A stretch of 28,353 nucleotides of DNA from a virus (Duplodnaviria > Heunggongvirae > Uroviricota > Caudoviricetes), in IMG/VR virus record IMGVR_UViG_648276669_000001, one strand, 5' to 3'. A program made the translations under genes and the position numbers. The notes below the pieces were generated by a model, which searched no databases, was not told where the DNA came from, and saw nothing but the letters and a program-made list of their open reading frames with translations. How positions within the stretch are numbered: the first letter of the stretch is position 1; each line of letters starts with the position of its first letter. Shown here one piece after another: positions 1 to 7,066 of the stretch.

Positions 1-299
1 CAAAGTAACCCGGGGCCGATTGCCATTTTGGTATGCGGCCAAAGTTGTTTAATCGCGTGCCCTAACAGGTGCGCACAGGAGTGACGAATGATCTCCAGAC
101 CTTCTTCGTCTTTGGCGGTAATGATCGACAGTTGTGCGTCGTTTTCAATCAGATCGCAAGCATCAACCAGTTCACCATTAACGCGCCCTGCAATACAGGC
201 TTTCGCCAGACCTGGACCAATGTCCAGCGCAACATCCATGGGGCTTACAGCGTGGTCGTAATGGCGTTGGCTGCCATCAGGAAGAGTTATAACAGGCAT
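1..299 (-). CDS. thrS: Threonyl-tRNA synthetase, N-terminal part (gene continues beyond window start)
   Basis: Minus-strand translation from ATG at 299 reads [96 protein letters not shown], recognised from memory as the ThrRS N-terminal domain; AAGGA RBS about 9 nt upstream. The last few codons at the window edge differ from what I recall for E. coli. Confidence 0.85.
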
Positions 300-470
300 T
301 TTATATCCTTATTTGCAGTGGTGACCCACACGAAAGATCACATACAAAGAGAAAACTTGTTTATTTACAGTTGATTACGATACCATCTAGCCAACAATCG
401 CTAAATTGGTACACAATCTGGTACACAGATGAAAAACTGACACAGCAAGTTTTTCATCCATTAAAATCAT
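300..470 (-). promoter_or_regulatory. Probable thrS 5' leader/operator region (translational autoregulation site in E. coli)
   Basis: Position immediately upstream of the thrS start; E. coli thrS is known to have a roughly 160 nt structured leader bound by ThrRS. Sequence not matched base by base from memory. Confidence 0.35.
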
Positions 471-545
471 GGTAACACCAAAAAAGTAGTGATTGCACCA
501 TTCTATTTGACAGTGTCCAAAATTGCCTTACTTCGATGAGGCATG

Positions 546-595
546 CCCCCCCATCTGGTATGTTTTAGTTGATATTGTGATTATACTGCCCCCCC
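546..595. repeat. Two homopolymeric C7 tracts (546-552 and 589-595) flanking a TATACT -10-like hexamer (582-587), upstream of the acetyltransferase ORF
   Basis: Seen directly: gcatgCCCCCCCatctgg and tatactgCCCCCCCaatcat. Confidence 0.9.
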
Positions 596-647
596 AATCA
601 TCCGTGTTGCATTACCTCGCCAGATAATGTAAATTTGAAATTTTCAT

Positions 648-1382
648 TTGCATTTTTTACTTATTGATAATATGAAAATTAGAAAAGTTGTTTTAACAAA
701 AGCAGAGAAGTATTCTGATGAAATGGGTAATGAGATCCAGTACGAAGGTAGTTGTGACGTCAAACTAATTCAGTTTAGAGGATCTAATAATAAACTTATC
801 ATTCATAAAGATGCATCATTAAAATATTTTGAGATATATTTTGACTGCAACAATGGGTATTTTGAAATTGGCCCATGCCATATCGCAAACAAAGGTATAC
901 AAGCCCATATAAGAGTGGGTGAGAATTCCTCCATAAAAATAGGCTCTGATTTCACTTGCACTGGTAAAGGTATGATTTCTGCTGTAGAAAACTCAAGCAT
1001 AATTATTGGCGATGACTGCATGTTTTCAAGTGGAAATGAAGTTAAAACTGATGACTCCCACCCTATTTTTAGTGTAGTAACAGGTGAACGTATAAATATG
1101 CCAAAATCTATTTATATTGGAAGTCATGTCTGGGTTGGCCGCCGAGCGGCAATACTTGGTGGTGCAGAAATCGAAAGTGGTAGTGTTATTGGCTATGCAG
1201 CTGTTGTTAAAGGACACGTCCCAAATAACTCTATTGCAGCAGGAGTTCCAGCAAGAGTAATAAAAAAAGACATTGCCTGGGAAAGACCTCATCTCTCCAT
1301 ACATAAACCTTATGTAAAGCCTAATAAGGACTCCATAAAAACCACAAGTGAATATTGGAACCTAACAAAAGAAAAACAATAA
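648..1382 (+). CDS. Hexapeptide-repeat (left-handed beta-helix) acyl/acetyltransferase, AT-rich cargo gene; alternative start at ATG 672
   Basis: Translation shows repeated [LIV]-G-x-x-x-x hexapeptide motifs (IGSHVWVGRRAAILGGAEIESGSVIGYAAVVKGHVPNNSIAAGVPARVI) typical of LacA/NeuO/WbbJ-type O-acetyltransferases; base composition markedly AT-rich relative to the phage structural genes. Confidence 0.8.
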   Translation: MHFLLIDNMKIRKVVLTKAEKYSDEMGNEIQYEGSCDVKLIQFRGSNNKLIIHKDASLKYFEIYFDCNNGYFEIGPCHIANKGIQAHIRVGENSSIKIGSDFTCTGKGMISAVENSSIIIGDDCMFSSGNEVKTDDSHPIFSVVTGERINMPKSIYIGSHVWVGRRAAILGGAEIESGSVIGYAAVVKGHVPNNSIAAGVPARVIKKDIAWERPHLSIHKPYVKPNKDSIKTTSEYWNLTKEKQ

Positions 1383-1419
1383 AAACACACCATATATTGA
1401 ACGACAAGTAAATCACATG

Positions 1420-1452
1420 TCACTCCTAGAATGCGATATCTTTAAGGAGTGA
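1420..1452. terminator. Inverted repeat (tcactcct / aggagtga, 8 bp stem, 17 nt loop) between convergent acetyltransferase and tailspike genes; possible bidirectional terminator
   Basis: Seen in sequence; flanking T-runs are weak. Confidence 0.3.
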
Positions 1453-1537
1453 CATTTATCTATAACAAATTACTAAAACACCCAAAAAACATAGACTTCA
1501 ATTGGTAATATTGAGACTTAAGGTGTCAGTAAAATAG

Positions 1538-4279
1538 TTAATTTGCAAGCTTATTTTCCAGTTCTTCAATCCTCTTTATAATATTTTTCTGACGTATACC
1601 TAATGCAGCAATCATTAGATACTGTAATTCATCATTTCTGAATGCATAGCGTTCTCCTGCTTCATGCGTAATAGTTATAGCCTCACGAACAAGGTTACCT
1701 TCATCATCATAAACAGCTGGATCTGTATCTGTATATGCATCCCATCTGTCATAGCAGATCGCTCCGTATTTAAATGGATCAAGTCCATTCTCTCTGAATA
1801 TTTCCATTGCCCGTTGCACCGTAAGTCCGGCATGAAGTCTGGCATCAGCTCCCTTATTTTTTACACTATCAAGCCATTGATAAAAACCAATTTCATCAAC
1901 AAGAGCTAACCCAACCGCCTGCTCTTTATCGGAAAGAGTTCTGACTTCCGTTTTCTCTGTTGCATCAGATGTATTTATAGTTGCAGTCCCTGCGTAGACC
2001 TGAGAAAAGCGGTTAACGGACCTTCCAAGTGATACCTGGTTATCAGTTGTTGGCCTTAATGTCGTCGTCGCCCATGTCGATGTAGTATCTTTAGTCGCAG
2101 AAAATACTGTTACATTCCCCTGCTTAAGTCTGACGACACCTCCATCTGTAGAGGCAAGTATCAACTCACCAGCCGCAGATGGACAATCAGCAGCATGGAT
2201 ATCAATATAAGCACCACCCGCAGTATTCCCATCTTTAGAACGGAACTGCATACCTCGAAAGTTTGAGTCGAATACTGCTTTCGTACTTACCCATGAATTA
2301 TTGTCATGTCCGTAATCTGTATCAAACAGGTTAAGGTTATTTCCATAATTCAACTCGAGGGATTTGGTATACTCTCCAATGGCTTCGTCAAATATCGCAA
2401 TAGTAAATGAACCGTGCTCACGGTTAAAGGCGATATCAGTTCCAGCATAATATTGATGCGCGGTTCCGGTATACGGATCGGATTCTGCACCATGCACTGG
2501 ATGGTTGCCAAGAATATCAGACAGGTTTGCTATTCCAAACAGATGCTTATTTCTGCGAGTATAATCACCTGATTTATATGTTGCGCCTGAATCCCATTCA
2601 CCACTTGTCGCTGCAAGCGATGTTTTTAACCAATAAGACCTGTTTGTCGGAAGATTTCCCTTGTTATCACCAGTAACAATACTTACCCAATTTTTACCAC
2701 GATGGCTTACAACATCCCCTGCGCTTTTCCATACATCCATAGCACCACAGACAAGTTCATCACCTCTTATTGCCAGCCCTTCAGGCTCAAAGCTAACCGG
2801 AACTCCGATTTTAGAGTCAGAACCATTTAACTGAGTCTCTGTATAAAGTGATGCGGCAAGTGATACAGGAAATGAACGTATTAGCGTACCACCCATATCA
2901 TAAATCTGTACTGTCCTTACGCATCTTGCAGGAACGCCACCCCAAATTGTGTAAATATATCTGCTATCTGATGTAATACCCTGAAGTGTTGCACCATACT
3001 GACCTTTACCACGGACAAGTGGAACAGGACCATTAATCGGTCTAACTTTCATTGGGTTAGAAGAAGATTCCACTTCTTTGCGATCATATACGTATAAAAA
3101 GCGGCCAGTCCCAGCGTTTGATGTCGCAATTAATATGACATATCGCCCATCATTAGATACACAAATACTTGCCCGCTGCGCAAGGTTAATCAGATTATTA
3201 TCACCCGGCTCACCAAATACTCGGTAATGAGTTATATCTTCAGCAGATGTTGATGCCCCTTTCCATTTTGTCTTTGAATACCCCTTCCCTCCTAGAGAGG
3301 AACCAGTCTCAGCAATTGTTGTTGTAAACAGATATAGTTCACCGTTCTCTATTGTGGCAGAAAGATCTGAACCGTGACCAAGAGGCAATGGCTCTGTAAA
3401 TGTCACAACATAAAGAGTTGAACCATCGCTTGTATAGTGCCACTCACTGATCCTTGTGAGGGTGTCCGTTCCCCAGTTAGAACCTCCAACCTGTTGAGTG
3501 ATAAAAACCTTCTCAATACCTTCATGCCTTACACAAGCTATTCCCTGCAATGCATTTTGTGCATTCGCATATATAGTTGGCGCATTGATATCATCACCAA
3601 AATTCAGGGTCGCAAGTTTTCTTTGTCCAATGGAGAAACTTTGCATCGGCGGATTAACAGAAATGCGAACACCATTACTGATTAGAACACCATCACCGGA
3701 GAAGCGTGAAATATCTATTTTCGATGCATCAACTATAAACTCACCAGAAGGCACATGAACCAAACCACTATTTCCTGCGCTAGATGCGGCGTCAAGAAAA
3801 GCCTGTGTTGAATCTCTATTCGCAGAGTCATCCGCCCCCCACCCGCGAACGTCTTTATCATCCCGCCATCGTGCAATCTGTAATTCAGGGTATTTTTTAG
3901 CACCATCAGGATCTTCTAATTGCTGCCGTAACTGATCCGGGTCATACTTCAGCACATTCGGAAAATAGAACTGCTGCGTACCATAAGCATCGTACACAGC
4001 CATAGAGTGTCCTTTCACAGTAACGAATTTGGCAATCTGTCCGTTATATACAGGATATCCAGCAGCATTGATAACGATTGGTTGCGAAACAGGAACGTGA
4101 GAACCTTCTTCATTCTCTACATAAACCTGAATCTGGTTTTCAGGATTTACAGGGTCAGTGTCAATTTTACCGATATAAATTTTGCCATTAGCTACGGCTT
4201 TAAAAGAACGAGCCATAGTGAAGAGTTGCGAAGGCATCCCAATTACAACATTTGGAGTTATATCAGGCATATTAGTCAT
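1538..4279 (-). CDS. Tailspike protein: P22 gp9-type N-terminal head-binding domain fused to a non-P22 receptor-binding/enzymatic domain and a C-terminal intramolecular-chaperone-like domain
   Basis: Residues [62 protein letters not shown]...[31 protein letters not shown] match the P22 tailspike head-binding domain from memory. The rest is unrelated to the P22 endorhamnosidase; the C-terminus ([36 protein letters not shown]...) resembles the autoproteolytic chaperone domain of endosialidase/tail-fibre proteins. Start set at the internal ATG (4279) because the 48-codon upstream extension is AT-rich and has no counterpart in P22 gp9. Confidence 0.85.
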
Positions 4280-4604
4280 CCTGTTTGAAAATTTAGATAT
4301 TGAAGAAAACGGAATGACTGCAGACAAAGATGCAATTGTTTTGAAAAATAATCTTCTATTCACTTTAAAACTATGCAACATGAACAAAACAATTATTTTA
4401 CAACAAACAAGAATCTTGATCAACAGACATATGCTTTATGCGTTTAATGCGTCATTTAAAAATAACAAGTACTACTTTTATTCCTATCGTCCATGATTTT
4501 CATTTTCAAATATTATTAAATAACAATTCCTATTTATAATATCTGTCATTTAATTTGCTCCAGATACAAGGAATCGCCGCAGCATGGCTACGGTGAATTT
4601 TGGG

Positions 4605-4631
4605 CATAAAAAACCCAGCCGAAGCTGGGTC
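4605..4631 (-). terminator. Rho-independent terminator downstream of ant (hairpin ACCCAGC-TTCG-GCTGGGT followed by a T-run on the minus strand)
   Basis: Seen in sequence: aaaaaacccagccgaagctgggt on the plus strand. Confidence 0.7.
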
Positions 4632-4648
4632 GTTGCGTTGGTTATCTG

Positions 4649-5551
4649 TCAGTAGTTATGTACTGAAGGAGGCAATTCTTTATTCTTAAGTCTCATCCAT
4701 GCGGAAAGATTCGTTGGTCCGTCTGGCTCATTGATATCAACATCTCGTGTGTGATTGATTAAAACGTCTCTCGCCATTCCGATAACATACGAGAATTCAT
4801 GACCGTAGTCGTAGCATCTGCCGGAATAGTTCGATTGAATTTGTTTTAGCGCCGGATACAGTTCGCGGAATAATGCCTGTGAACGGTTGGCATAATCCCA
4901 TAACCATACAAGGCTGTTTGCTTCTTTTGCAGAAAGCTCGTTTGCTTTCTTCTCTTGTTTGCCAATAAACTCGCCTTCAAGCACTACCCTGTGGATGTAC
5001 TCTACTGCTTGCGGTATCTGAGATGCATCAAGCTCTTCAATACTTTCCACGTTGAAACGCTGATGAATCATTGCATAAGCTTCTGGGTACATTAGATGCT
5101 TTTTGCTGACTAGCATATTTACAGCATCACGAAGCGGAGTCCTGTCATCAACAGATGTTTTCTTACGTGCATTTTCTTCCTTTCCCTTCGTCCAGTAGTC
5201 ATGCAGCACGCTAAAGCATTCCTCCTGGTACTGAATCAGTTTATCACGGATGTCAGCACGAACTTTCTCAGGGTTGATGCTGAACAGCCATCCATTTAAC
5301 TTCTTCAAAGGAAGGCAGAGTAGCTTACGAAGCTTCCCATCAGCGGCAACCATGTTCATATGAACACAGTTGAATTTGCTAATCTGCTTCATGAGTTTTG
5401 TTTGCTGCGTTGACCAGCTCATTCCAAGGTTTTCAACGATTGGCTTCATCGCAACATATGCAACTCCGGCAGCCATGGCGGTGATAATTTGCTGACCGTT
5501 GAATGGTACGTAAGAGGTGTTCACTGCTTCTAAAATTGCTATACTATTCAT
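4649..5551 (-). CDS. ant: Antirepressor Ant (P22 immI)
   Basis: Translation from ATG 5551 ([21 protein letters not shown]...) recognised as P22-type antirepressor; GGAG RBS about 10 nt upstream; lies directly downstream of arc as in P22. Confidence 0.9.
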
Positions 5552-5871: not shown

Positions 5872-6144
5872 ATGGCTAGAGATGATCCGCACTTTAACTT
5901 CCGTATGCCTATGGAAGTAAGGGAGAAATTAAAATTCAGGGCGGAGGCGAATGGGAGATCAATGAACTCCGAGTTGTTACAAATCGTCCAAGATGCTCTA
6001 TCAAAACCATCGCCTGTGACTGGATATCGCGACGATGCAGAACGACTCGCTGATGAGCAGTCAGAGCTTGTTAAGAAGATGGTGTTTGATACGCTGAAGG
6101 ATTTGTACAAAAAAACCCACCTGAAGGTGGGTCCTATTTATTAG
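5872..6144 (+). CDS. mnt: Mnt repressor (maintenance of lysogeny), with a C-terminal tail that differs from the P22 ending I recall
   Basis: Translation MARDDPHFNFRMPMEVREKLKFRAEANGRSMNSELLQIVQDALSKPSPVTGYRDDAERLADEQSELVKKMVFDTLKDLYKK... matches P22 Mnt from memory; GGAG RBS at 5861-5864. Confidence 0.95.
   Translation: MARDDPHFNFRMPMEVREKLKFRAEANGRSMNSELLQIVQDALSKPSPVTGYRDDAERLADEQSELVKKMVFDTLKDLYKKTHLKVGPIY
6108..6133 (-). terminator. Rho-independent terminator for the minus-strand lipoprotein gene (hairpin ACCCACC-TGAA-GGTGGGT plus T-run); overlaps the 3' coding end of mnt
   Basis: Seen in sequence: aaaaaacccacctgaaggtgggt. Confidence 0.6.
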
Positions 6145-6560
6145 TCTTGCTTTGTTGATGGTATAAGAGATGCGTTTGCCTCTTTTGGCTTCAAGGTATA
6201 CATCCCACCATTAAAAGGATCTACAGCAAGCCAACCAATTAACCCACCAAACACAAGGTTTCCACCAATATACCAGCCATTAGCATTGGCTTTGATTGGC
6301 AGGGTAACTGGTTCGTACCCATCCTTTTCCATAGTGATCTGGTAGCTCTTTTTGCCAAAATAACTACCATCTGACTTGGCAAGAGTTACTCCTTGTGGGG
6401 TCTTACCTTGCGCAACAATCACGCCTGATTCGTCTTTTACCTTAAAGCTCGCACCGGAAGGATTGCTGTTCACTTGCACAAGCTGCGTTTCGTCACCAAC
6501 AATAGTTGCGCACCCAGATAACAATATAGCGCCAGCAACGACGCCAATAATCCTCTTCAT
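6141..6560 (-). CDS. Putative lipoprotein (signal peptide with lipobox LLSGC); moron in the sieA-equivalent position
   Basis: Translation from ATG 6560: MKRIIGVVAGAILLSGCATIVGDETQ...; Gly-rich C-terminal motif GGNLVFGGLIGWLAVDPFNGG. No homolog confidently recognised. Confidence 0.7.
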   Translation of the reverse strand: MKRIIGVVAGAILLSGCATIVGDETQLVQVNSNPSGASFKVKDESGVIVAQGKTPQGVTLAKSDGSYFGKKSYQITMEKDGYEPVTLPIKANANGWYIGGNLVFGGLIGWLAVDPFNGGMYTLKPKEANASLIPSTKQD

Positions 6561-6676
6561 ATCAATTTCCATATTTAAAAAACCGGAAACATCCTAATGA
6601 CAAACCATTCAAATGTGAAGTAGGCAAAAGATGTTTACTTTTTCATGGTATCCTGCTCAAAACTAAGGAGGTTGGC

Positions 6677-7066
6677 GTGAAGCAATTTCTTACTGCTATG
6701 TTCTTATTCATATCTTTTGGGGCTACAGCAGAGTGCTGGGTCGTTGGAGATATGCGCGGAATAAGCTATTCAGAACGAAATAATTTCCACCCGGAAGAAG
6801 ATGGTTTTAGTGGAACATTCATCATTAAGACAAACGGTGAAGATGCCAGCATCACATATTCTGGGACAGATGCGGGCGGCATGGCTTACAAAGCATTGTC
6901 TAAAAACTCCATCATAGGAATCGGCGCGAATGGCGAAACTCAACGCGTTATCGACTCATGGGTAATACATCCTACTGGAACAGTTTTAATGTCAAAAACC
7001 ATTTCCGGTTATGGAAATATGGATTCAACCAAAGCTTTTGTTGGAAAAGTAAAAAGAAAATGTTAG
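6677..7066 (+). CDS. Small exported protein of unknown function (N-terminal signal peptide, GTG start)
   Basis: Strong RBS AAGGAGG 6 nt upstream of GTG; N-terminus MKQFLTAMFLFISFGATAEC looks like a Sec signal peptide; divergent from the lipoprotein gene. Confidence 0.65.
   Translation: MKQFLTAMFLFISFGATAECWVVGDMRGISYSERNNFHPEEDGFSGTFIIKTNGEDASITYSGTDAGGMAYKALSKNSIIGIGANGETQRVIDSWVIHPTGTVLMSKTISGYGNMDSTKAFVGKVKRKC

Follow-up and report, generated by a model that had tools for sequence, protein, structure and literature searches.

The IMG/VR virus record IMGVR_UViG_648276669_000001 (Caudoviricetes), a stretch of 28,353 nucleotides that was analysed over its whole length and is called the window below, contains at positions 546-4279 two neighboring prophage genes encoding a hexapeptide-repeat acetyltransferase and a chimeric tailspike. 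This gene pair probably acts as a module by which a temperate P22-like phage, specific for one rare group-2 capsule of Escherichia coli, sets its host range and converts its lysogens. The interpretation draws on the domain composition and homology of both proteins, their position in the prophage, the exclusive co-occurrence of the module with a particular capsule locus and the finding that capsule loci of this type in other bacteria include members of the acetyltransferase's family. The capsule of the host is put forward as the target because of the distribution of the module in E. coli, the residence of the acetyltransferase family in capsule loci and the recurrence of the pair elsewhere. An earlier note on this DNA had proposed a receptor tailspike with a receptor modifier, comparable to the pair found in prophage CUS-3 with its NeuO O-acetyltransferase and possibly directed at another substrate by another enzyme. 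This proposal is now supported by the subfamily of the enzyme, together with the capsule co-occurrence, the capsule-locus homologues and the recurring pair.

An acetyltransferase of the NeuO/OatWY type at the prophage edge

The window is 100% identical to a locus of E. coli strain MS 16-3 and was compared with 5426 complete E. coli genomes. The thrS end of the window is found in all of them, and the match to prophage-free E. coli stops at 434-437. The insertion point of the prophage lies some 138 bp upstream of the start codon of thrS, inside or beside the thrS leader/operator. Beyond the junction extends a P22-like prophage that is complete and about 40 kb long, the integrase of which lies at the far end, outside the window. 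The acetyltransferase gene and then the tailspike gene are the first two prophage genes past this junction, so that the position next to the host junction assigned earlier to the acetyltransferase holds. The attachment site (att) is duplicated imperfectly over about 100 bp with an exact core of 16 bp, ACCATCTAGCCAACAA, at 382-397, and a look-alike copy adjoins int in MS 16-3 (locus stretch L014 9290-9400). The acetyltransferase gene is part of the prophage rather than of the host, as it is absent from 5421 of the 5426 genomes and lies beyond position 437, where homology with the host stops. A host housekeeping origin, which the earlier note had named among the things that would refute its proposal, is ruled out: the gene is missing from all prophage-free strains.

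The open reading frame of the acetyltransferase spans 648-1382 on the + strand, and the RefSeq start at 672 leads to a protein of 236 residues (WP_001313877.1). As had been described, the gene is AT-rich (36% G+C against 48% for the rest of the window) and convergent with the tailspike gene, which lies on the - strand. The protein matches Pfam PF00132 with 29.2 bits (cut-off 27). Its best matches among solved structures are NeuO (3jqy, E 3e-32), to which residues 32-206 align, and OatWY (2wlc, E 5e-25); maltose, galactoside and streptogramin acetyltransferases are far weaker matches, with E values of about 1e-13 to 1e-14. Among phage genomes, the closest enterobacterial relative is neuO of CUS-3, with 38.5% identity over 174 residues. 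NeuO and OatWY share an active site made of Met134, His147, Trp171, Arg174, Trp220 and Arg222 (PMC3046976). All six residues are aligned with a counterpart here (M117, H130, W154, R157, W203 and R205), and these six predicted active-site residues are invariant in an alignment of 15 family members. A hydrophobic segment was looked for in the protein and none was found. Judged by these alignments, the enzyme is a true member of the NeuO/OatWY subfamily, a homologue rather than an analogue. It is not NeuO itself, because it has no poly-psi heptads, its identity is below 40% and the host has no capsule genes for sialic acid. Indeed, no heptads are present at the N-terminus, and a scan of 300-4700 for heptanucleotide and other tandem repeats returned nothing except one 12-bp repeat inside the tailspike gene, which bears out the absence of NeuO-type repeats reported previously.

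A tailspike with a P22 anchor and a predicted five-bladed propeller

Two start codons can be considered for the tailspike. The one at 4279 (MTNMPDIT...) gives 913 residues, the numbering of which is followed here, and the RefSeq start at 4270 (MPDIT...) gives 910 residues in register with the tailspikes of P22 and Sf6. The earlier note had recognized in this protein a P22 head-binding domain of about 115 residues, a remainder unrelated to the P22 endorhamnosidase and a chaperone-like C-terminus, and each of the three parts was recovered. The PF09008 domain covers residues 4-116 and matches the Sf6 gp14 structure 7sg7 with an E value of 6e-64; at the DNA level this region is about 88-92% identical to other P22-like phages. 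The P22 and Sf6 tailspike structures match residues 4-121 only, and the HK620 structure likewise matches the head-binding domain only. The right-handed parallel beta-helix that forms the catalytic domain of P22-like tailspikes was not recovered, and the model shows a propeller in its place. At the other end, the Peptidase_S74 domain PF13884 is matched over residues 771-832 with 31.7 bits (cut-off 22), position 1 of the domain model falling on residue 771. The C-terminus also matches the structures of the endoNF chaperone (3gw6, E 3e-16), the T5 L-shaped fibre (4uw8, E 1e-31), 7y5s and 3gud. The chaperone begins with SDATEK (S771-K776), that is, with a serine at the predicted cleavage site and a lysine five residues further on, the spacing of the Ser/Lys dyad in endoNF.

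The central region is of another nature. In a search of the PDB, residues 120-730 gave no sequence match to any solved structure, and in PHROGs this part belongs to a family of unknown function. An AlphaFold model built with 14 homologues is confident at residues 142-600, where it is all-beta and contains the predicted five-bladed propeller. The closest solved fold to this propeller is Gp45 of the staphylococcal phage phi11, with an identity to the staphylococcal proteins of about 12%; Foldseek also matches the P68 tail fibre and the receptor-binding protein of 80alpha. With gp12, the neck appendage of Bacillus phage GA-1, the whole part outside the head-binding domain shares 28.7% identity over 93%. 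Twelve residues are invariant in the family (H302, K332, K336, D348, D377, D438, E498, E500, W517, W550, K578 and R680). The charged ones among them are compatible with a catalytic or a phosphate-binding pocket and prove neither. An endosialidase identity of the center was rejected: the domains PF12217, PF12218 and PF12195 are absent, no Asp-box or FRIP motif is found, and sialidases rank far below five-bladed propellers in the structure comparison.

The propeller fold is common to receptor-binding proteins for which no activity has been reported and to enzymes of families GH43, GH32 and GH62. The fold therefore indicates carbohydrate recognition and accommodates cutting and non-cutting proteins alike. 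The chances that the tailspike center is enzymatically active can be put at roughly even or slightly better, because a podovirus must cross the capsule and the characterized P22-like tailspikes are enzymes, to our knowledge without exception. Consequently, of the candidate receptor-depolymerase named previously, the receptor domain is retained and the depolymerase is no more than possible, the center being a predicted five-bladed propeller whose nearest solved relative has no reported activity. The propeller of phi11 binds N-acetylglucosamine on wall teichoic acid, with no enzymatic activity reported (PMC4901313).

Exclusive co-occurrence with a rare capsule locus

The module is carried by five of the 5426 E. 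coli genomes, those of MS 16-3, E4, TUM10008, EC24 and GMF065. In MS 16-3, a group-2 kps locus of the ABC-transporter type adjoins pheV, and its region 2 (locus stretch L013 14672-19498) encodes four proteins: a TagD-like cytidylyltransferase, a TagF/TagB-like CDP-glycerol glycerophosphotransferase, a KpsC/KpsS-family (PF05159) protein of 701 residues and a GT8 protein. No neu gene is among these four. The complete region 2 was found in exactly five genomes, and these are the same five that carry the module; the association, even if limited to five genomes, is exclusive in this sample. Both region 2 and the module are 99-100% identical among the carriers. With regard to the host clusters mentioned in the earlier note, a group-2 kps locus is thus present, neu is absent, and the O-antigen loci could be typed in all five carriers, where they are O4, O7, O7, O11 and O23.

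The module is also better conserved than the prophages around it. The segment comprising att, acetyltransferase and tailspike is 99.2-99.7% identical among the carriers. When the other 23.7 kb of the window are considered, a coverage of at least 80% is reached by MS 16-3 alone; the E4 prophage covers 72% of this part at 96.8% identity, a value that P22-like prophages unrelated to it equal, and EC24 and TUM10008 rank lower still. The carriers do not simply form a single clone.

The chemistry of the capsule can be approached from the gene content. TagB-like enzymes of group-2 loci have been described by Litschko et al. as building a poly(glycerol phosphate) linker, in loci that make teichoic-acid-like polymers (PMC11666461). 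A teichoic-acid-like capsule would fit the affinities of the tailspike with phages of Gram-positive bacteria. The PF05159 domain of the 701-residue protein presumably points to beta-Kdo. The gene content of the locus does not separate a K2-like galactosyl-glycerol-phosphate polymer from a Kdo-containing one, and the paper on K-locus typing offers nothing about glycerol or acetyltransferases.

Several observations can be added on these genomes. Region 2 of MS 16-3 has a G+C content of 29-32%, and its TagD-like cytidylyltransferase is misleadingly annotated as 'pantoate--beta-alanine ligase' or 'FAD synthase'. Strains SE15 and SCU-102 have region 2 minus the GT8 gene and lack the prophage module, and 68 genomes have only the cytidylyltransferase gene of this region in common. 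In GMF065 (locus stretch L018 3657-8361), all that is left of the prophage is an intact acetyltransferase gene, a fragment of the integrase and a tailspike gene whose 5' end has been cut off by ISEc31; in this strain the conversion gene has outlived the phage. Finally, MS 16-3 carries near sbcB (L044 6102-8657) a decayed prophage with the gtrA/gtrB-like genes yfdG and yfdH and a putative gtrC, a separate cassette for O-antigen glucosylation.

Homologues in capsule loci and recurrence of the pair

Outside E. coli, homologues of the acetyltransferase with 55-61% identity are encoded within ABC-transporter capsule loci of Alcaligenaceae CGII-56, of an Acidovorax metagenome-assembled genome and of Pusillimonas. 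In the first two (55-59%), the gene order is TagD-like, TagF-like, PF05159 protein, acetyltransferase. TagD-like and TagF-like genes occur in the Pusillimonas locus too, and the place of the PF05159 protein is taken there by a GT29-like gene. Over its full length, the TagF-like protein of E. coli shares 50, 44 and 34% identity with its counterparts in Alcaligenaceae, Acidovorax and Pusillimonas, respectively; the E. coli PF05159 protein shares 35-39% identity across about 550 residues with its counterparts in Alcaligenaceae and Acidovorax. Thus, the E. coli K locus looks like a betaproteobacterial one devoid of its acetyltransferase, the missing gene apparently being supplied by the prophage. 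More generally, a homologue of the acetyltransferase lies at most 9 kb from a TagF-like gene in 42 of 80 loci from other species, a count obtained with ad hoc profiles and without a formal background control.

The pairing with a tailspike recurs as well. Alcaligenaceae CGII-56 harbors a prophage with a P22-type coat protein in which a tailspike homologue (36%) is directly followed by a homologue of the acetyltransferase (57%), and a metagenomic prophage contains a convergent pair with 64% and 32% identity. A third and more distant pair is found on an IMG/VR contig. On the IMG/VR contig L042 (7404-11561), an unrelated-looking tailspike (25% identity) is followed by a convergent open reading frame of 303 codons that includes an acetyltransferase-like region (31%). 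The contig of the closest metagenomic tailspike homologue (L003) was rejected as a further case, its hexapeptide genes being only remotely related. Two other IMG/VR contigs (L025 and L026, 7404-10304) carry residues 137-913 of the tailspike with 95% identity behind another N-terminal anchor, on the backbone of a non-P22 E. coli phage. The backbone is that of L042 and the tailspikes are different, and receptor modules are therefore swapped in this group. A scan of viral genomes for tailspike relatives yielded 21 loci.

One homologue stands apart. In Pseudomonas sp. LFM046 (L021 9001-18696), a gene encoding a 48%-identical protein immediately follows that of flagellin and belongs to a glycosylation island which also comprises a TagD-like and two TagF-like genes. 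The acetyltransferase family may also modify polyol-phosphate decorations on flagellin.

Comparison with known conversion systems

The nearest known system is CUS-3, which combines in E. coli K1 the endosialidase gene siaK1 with NeuO. Both are P22-like prophages with the same head-binding domain, the same C-terminal chaperone and a hexapeptide O-acetyltransferase of the same subfamily encoded beside the tailspike gene at the prophage end, in a host with a group-2 capsule. The two systems also differ in several respects. The propeller predicted here is five-bladed and unrelated in sequence to the six-bladed endosialidase; the AAGACTC heptanucleotide repeats of variable number and the poly-psi (RLKTQDS) domain, which are the phase-variation device of CUS-3, are absent; the two genes are convergent, whereas those of CUS-3 are co-directional; the integrase is encoded at the other end of the prophage; the thrS leader serves as attachment site; and the capsule locus of the host has no neu genes. 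The parallel with K1 prophages drawn in the earlier note can consequently be kept for the logic of the pairing and not for gene orientation and prophage layout, which follow the position of gtr in P22 instead.

In the conversion cassettes of P22 (gtrABC) and Sf6 (oac), the modifier indeed lies between the tailspike gene and att, and the prophage alters the polysaccharide of its own tailspike. In these cassettes the O antigen is modified by membrane proteins (bactoprenol glucosyl transferases and the acyltransferase_3 family), whereas the present enzyme is a soluble left-handed beta-helix linked to a capsule. OatWY, from the W/Y capsule of Neisseria meningitidis, is the second-best solved relative and has the same set of active-site residues. 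As with the betaproteobacterial homologues, its gene sits in a capsule locus of the chromosome; in contrast to the present protein, it is not phage-borne and its substrates are sialic-acid heteropolymers. As for the tailspike center, its relatives phi11 Gp45, the P68 tail fibre, the 80alpha receptor-binding protein and GA-1 gp12 are receptor-binding proteins of phages using teichoic acids, whereas here the propeller is fused to a P22 head-binding domain and directed at a Gram-negative host.

Another means of phase variation can be considered. Over about 400 bp, the insertions and deletions among the five carriers are confined to two C tracts (C6/C7 and C6/C7/C8) situated 77-126 bp upstream of the acetyltransferase start codon. 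Their length may act as a slipped-strand expression switch replacing the coding repeat of NeuO, or it may reflect homopolymer sequencing errors. Position 546, formerly given as the left edge of the gene pair, falls at the first tract and is not a gene boundary.

Proposed mechanism and alternative explanations

Taken together, these data allow a mechanism to be proposed, in which we infer which polymer accepts the acetyl groups, what the tailspike recognizes, whether it has an enzymatic activity and how acetylation affects the biology. The tailspike would dock on the virion via its P22 head-binding domain, and the trimer would fold with the help of the C-terminal chaperone and mature by a predicted autocleavage at S771 that removes the chaperone. 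The phage would then adsorb to the capsule by means of the five-bladed propeller domain, possibly cleaving the polymer. In the lysogen, the prophage-encoded cytoplasmic enzyme would O-acetylate the same polymer before its export at the expense of acetyl-CoA, which is possible because capsules exported by ABC transporters are completed in the cytoplasm. By analogy with NeuO in K1, acetylation would change the antigenicity of the capsule and probably make phages that share this specificity adsorb to it or cleave it less. In the K1 system, acetylation by NeuO has been found to protect the cells from a K1 phage (PMC13001214).

Several points weigh against this interpretation. Once integrated, a prophage can do without its receptor, so that the co-occurrence with the capsule locus reflects history; moreover, a relationship between the five hosts is conceivable even though their O loci differ. 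The non-P22 E. coli phage with the 95%-identical receptor domain has no acetyltransferase, and Mu-like and siphovirus prophages also possess the tailspike domain without this enzyme. The tailspike model is a monomer with a mean pLDDT (predicted local distance difference test score) of 65, built on a shallow alignment of 14 sequences, and the nearest solved structure, phi11 Gp45, has no reported enzymatic activity. A promoter scan upstream of the acetyltransferase gene gave nothing convincing. Lastly, TagF-like enzymes in group-2 loci may build a linker only (PMC11666461).

If the association with the K locus were a phylogenetic artefact, inherited by all five carriers from one ancestral lysogen, the specificity of the module could not be deduced from it. 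The small number of genomes, the identical insertion site and the near identity of module and region 2 would agree with such a scenario; it is nonetheless unlikely, given that the carriers have four O types and different housekeeping alleles near his/gnd, that their prophages differ in backbone and immunity region, that the hosts come from three continents, and that capsule core, acetyltransferase and tailspike are found together again, independently, in the Alcaligenaceae case. The O antigen might alternatively be the target, the tailspike being an O-antigen glycanase and the enzyme acetylating O units like WbbJ or Oac. Most P22-like tailspikes are directed at O antigens, cytoplasmic hexapeptide enzymes can act on O units linked to undecaprenyl pyrophosphate, and WbbJ appears among the NCBIfam matches of the acetyltransferase (E 1e-14, far below the cut-off). 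Against this stand the four different O loci of the carriers, the rarity of the module in genomes of a given O type (one of the 36 with O4 and two of the 95 with O7) and the fact that the closest relatives of the enzyme are capsule enzymes and members of capsule loci, all of which makes an O-antigen target highly improbable. It is also very unlikely that the acetyltransferase is an unrelated moron, active on a small molecule or xenobiotic, on a flagellin glycan or on the enterobacterial common antigen, and adjoining the tailspike gene by chance. The weak matches to maltose, galactoside and streptogramin acetyltransferases, the Pseudomonas homologue of the flagellar island and the 38 of 80 homologue loci in which the ad hoc profiles detected no marker genes could be cited in its favor. 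NeuO and OatWY score far better, however, and the polysaccharide-specific residues W203 and R205 are kept; the closest homologues reside in capsule loci or beside tailspike homologues, and even the Pseudomonas one adjoins TagD- and TagF-like genes.

Another alternative concerns only the action of the tailspike, which might be a non-enzymatic adhesin whose propeller merely binds the capsule in the way phi11 Gp45 binds glycosylated teichoic acid, the penetration being achieved by other means. The silence of the literature on any activity of Gp45 speaks for this, and the need of a podovirus to cross the capsule, with the enzymatic nature of P22-like tailspikes, speaks for cleavage; a pure adhesin is conceivable, at clearly less than an even chance. 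The proposed module for one E. coli capsule could also be viewed in a broader and more speculative way, as a mobile cassette crossing the Gram divide, in which a receptor domain and an acetyltransferase serve the recognition and the modification of teichoic-acid-like polymers. The propeller would derive from the lineage of Gram-positive phages represented by GA-1 gp12 and phi11 Gp45 and would have been taken over by beta- and gammaproteobacterial phages for use against TagB/TagF-type group-2 capsules, while the acetyltransferase would have been captured from a capsule locus and perhaps placed under a poly-C switch. This extension is doubtful at present and is offered only tentatively.

Significance

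NeuO of CUS-3 is the one well-studied case of a prophage acetylating the capsule of its own tailspike, with effects on virulence, resistance to serum and neutrophils and susceptibility to phages. A literature search, of incomplete coverage, returned no description of the present tailspike/acetyltransferase module and nothing relevant on 'NeuO-like' enzymes. If the interpretation is true, the module would be a second and mechanistically distinct case, differing in capsule, tailspike fold and absence of a heptad switch, and the strategy would be general for group-2 capsules. A likely function could also be attributed to two phage families of unknown function, phrog_30105 and phrog_16355, and the tailspike would become a candidate reagent, for recognition or depolymerization, directed at a K locus of E. 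coli that is rare and untyped. The phage recognition of teichoic-acid-like capsules in Gram-negative bacteria would further be tied to the receptor-binding proteins of Gram-positive phages, and, should the cassette hypothesis be true, the module would provide a first pair of enzyme and receptor for an untyped E. coli K antigen.

Other features of the region

The features of the prophage edge are listed in Table 1. The two convergent genes are 155 bp apart, and the RNA fold of the interval (1383-1537) has a free energy of -28.9 kcal/mol with z = -3.15. The stem-loop formed at 1417-1455 is a probable bidirectional terminator for both genes; a simple terminator scan missed it because its loop is long.

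Table 1. Location of the features at the thrS end of the window. Residue numbers refer to the 913-residue form of the tailspike.
Feature	Position	Strand	Basis or remark
thrS (threonine-tRNA ligase, host), 5' end	1..299	-	start codon at 299; RefSeq annotation of the identical MS 16-3 locus
Attachment-site region	330..437	.	thrS leader/upstream sequence; second, imperfect copy at the integrase end
Poly-C tract 1 (C7)	546..552	+	upstream of the acetyltransferase; C6 in GMF065; alignment of five carriers
Poly-C tract 2 (C7)	589..595	+	C8 in E4, shorter in GMF065; alignment of five carriers
Acetyltransferase, 236 residues, hexapeptide left-handed beta-helix, NeuO/OatWY subfamily	672..1382	+	Pfam Hexapep; PDB relatives
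Stem-loop, probable bidirectional terminator	1417..1455	.	RNA fold of 1383-1537
Tailspike gene	1538..4270	-	910 residues from 4270; 913 from 4279
C-terminal intramolecular chaperone (Peptidase_S74), residues 771-913	1541..1969	-	PF13884; PDB matches
Receptor-binding region, residues ~142-735: predicted five-bladed beta-propeller (~215-590), then beta-sandwich/stalk	2075..3856	-	
P22-type head-binding (particle-attachment) domain, residues 4-116	3932..4270	-	PF09008, E 8e-65

On the host side of the junction, the natural promoter of thrS may be replaced by phage DNA in lysogens (window 300-470). Further inside the prophage, two divergent genes of the immI region sit between arc/mnt and the genes of the ejection proteins. 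One of them (6141-6572, - strand) encodes a lipoprotein-like protein of 143 residues with a weak PEGA match, and the other (6677-7066, + strand) a protein of 129 residues with a signal-peptide-like N-terminus. Both can be regarded as candidate exclusion or conversion morons.

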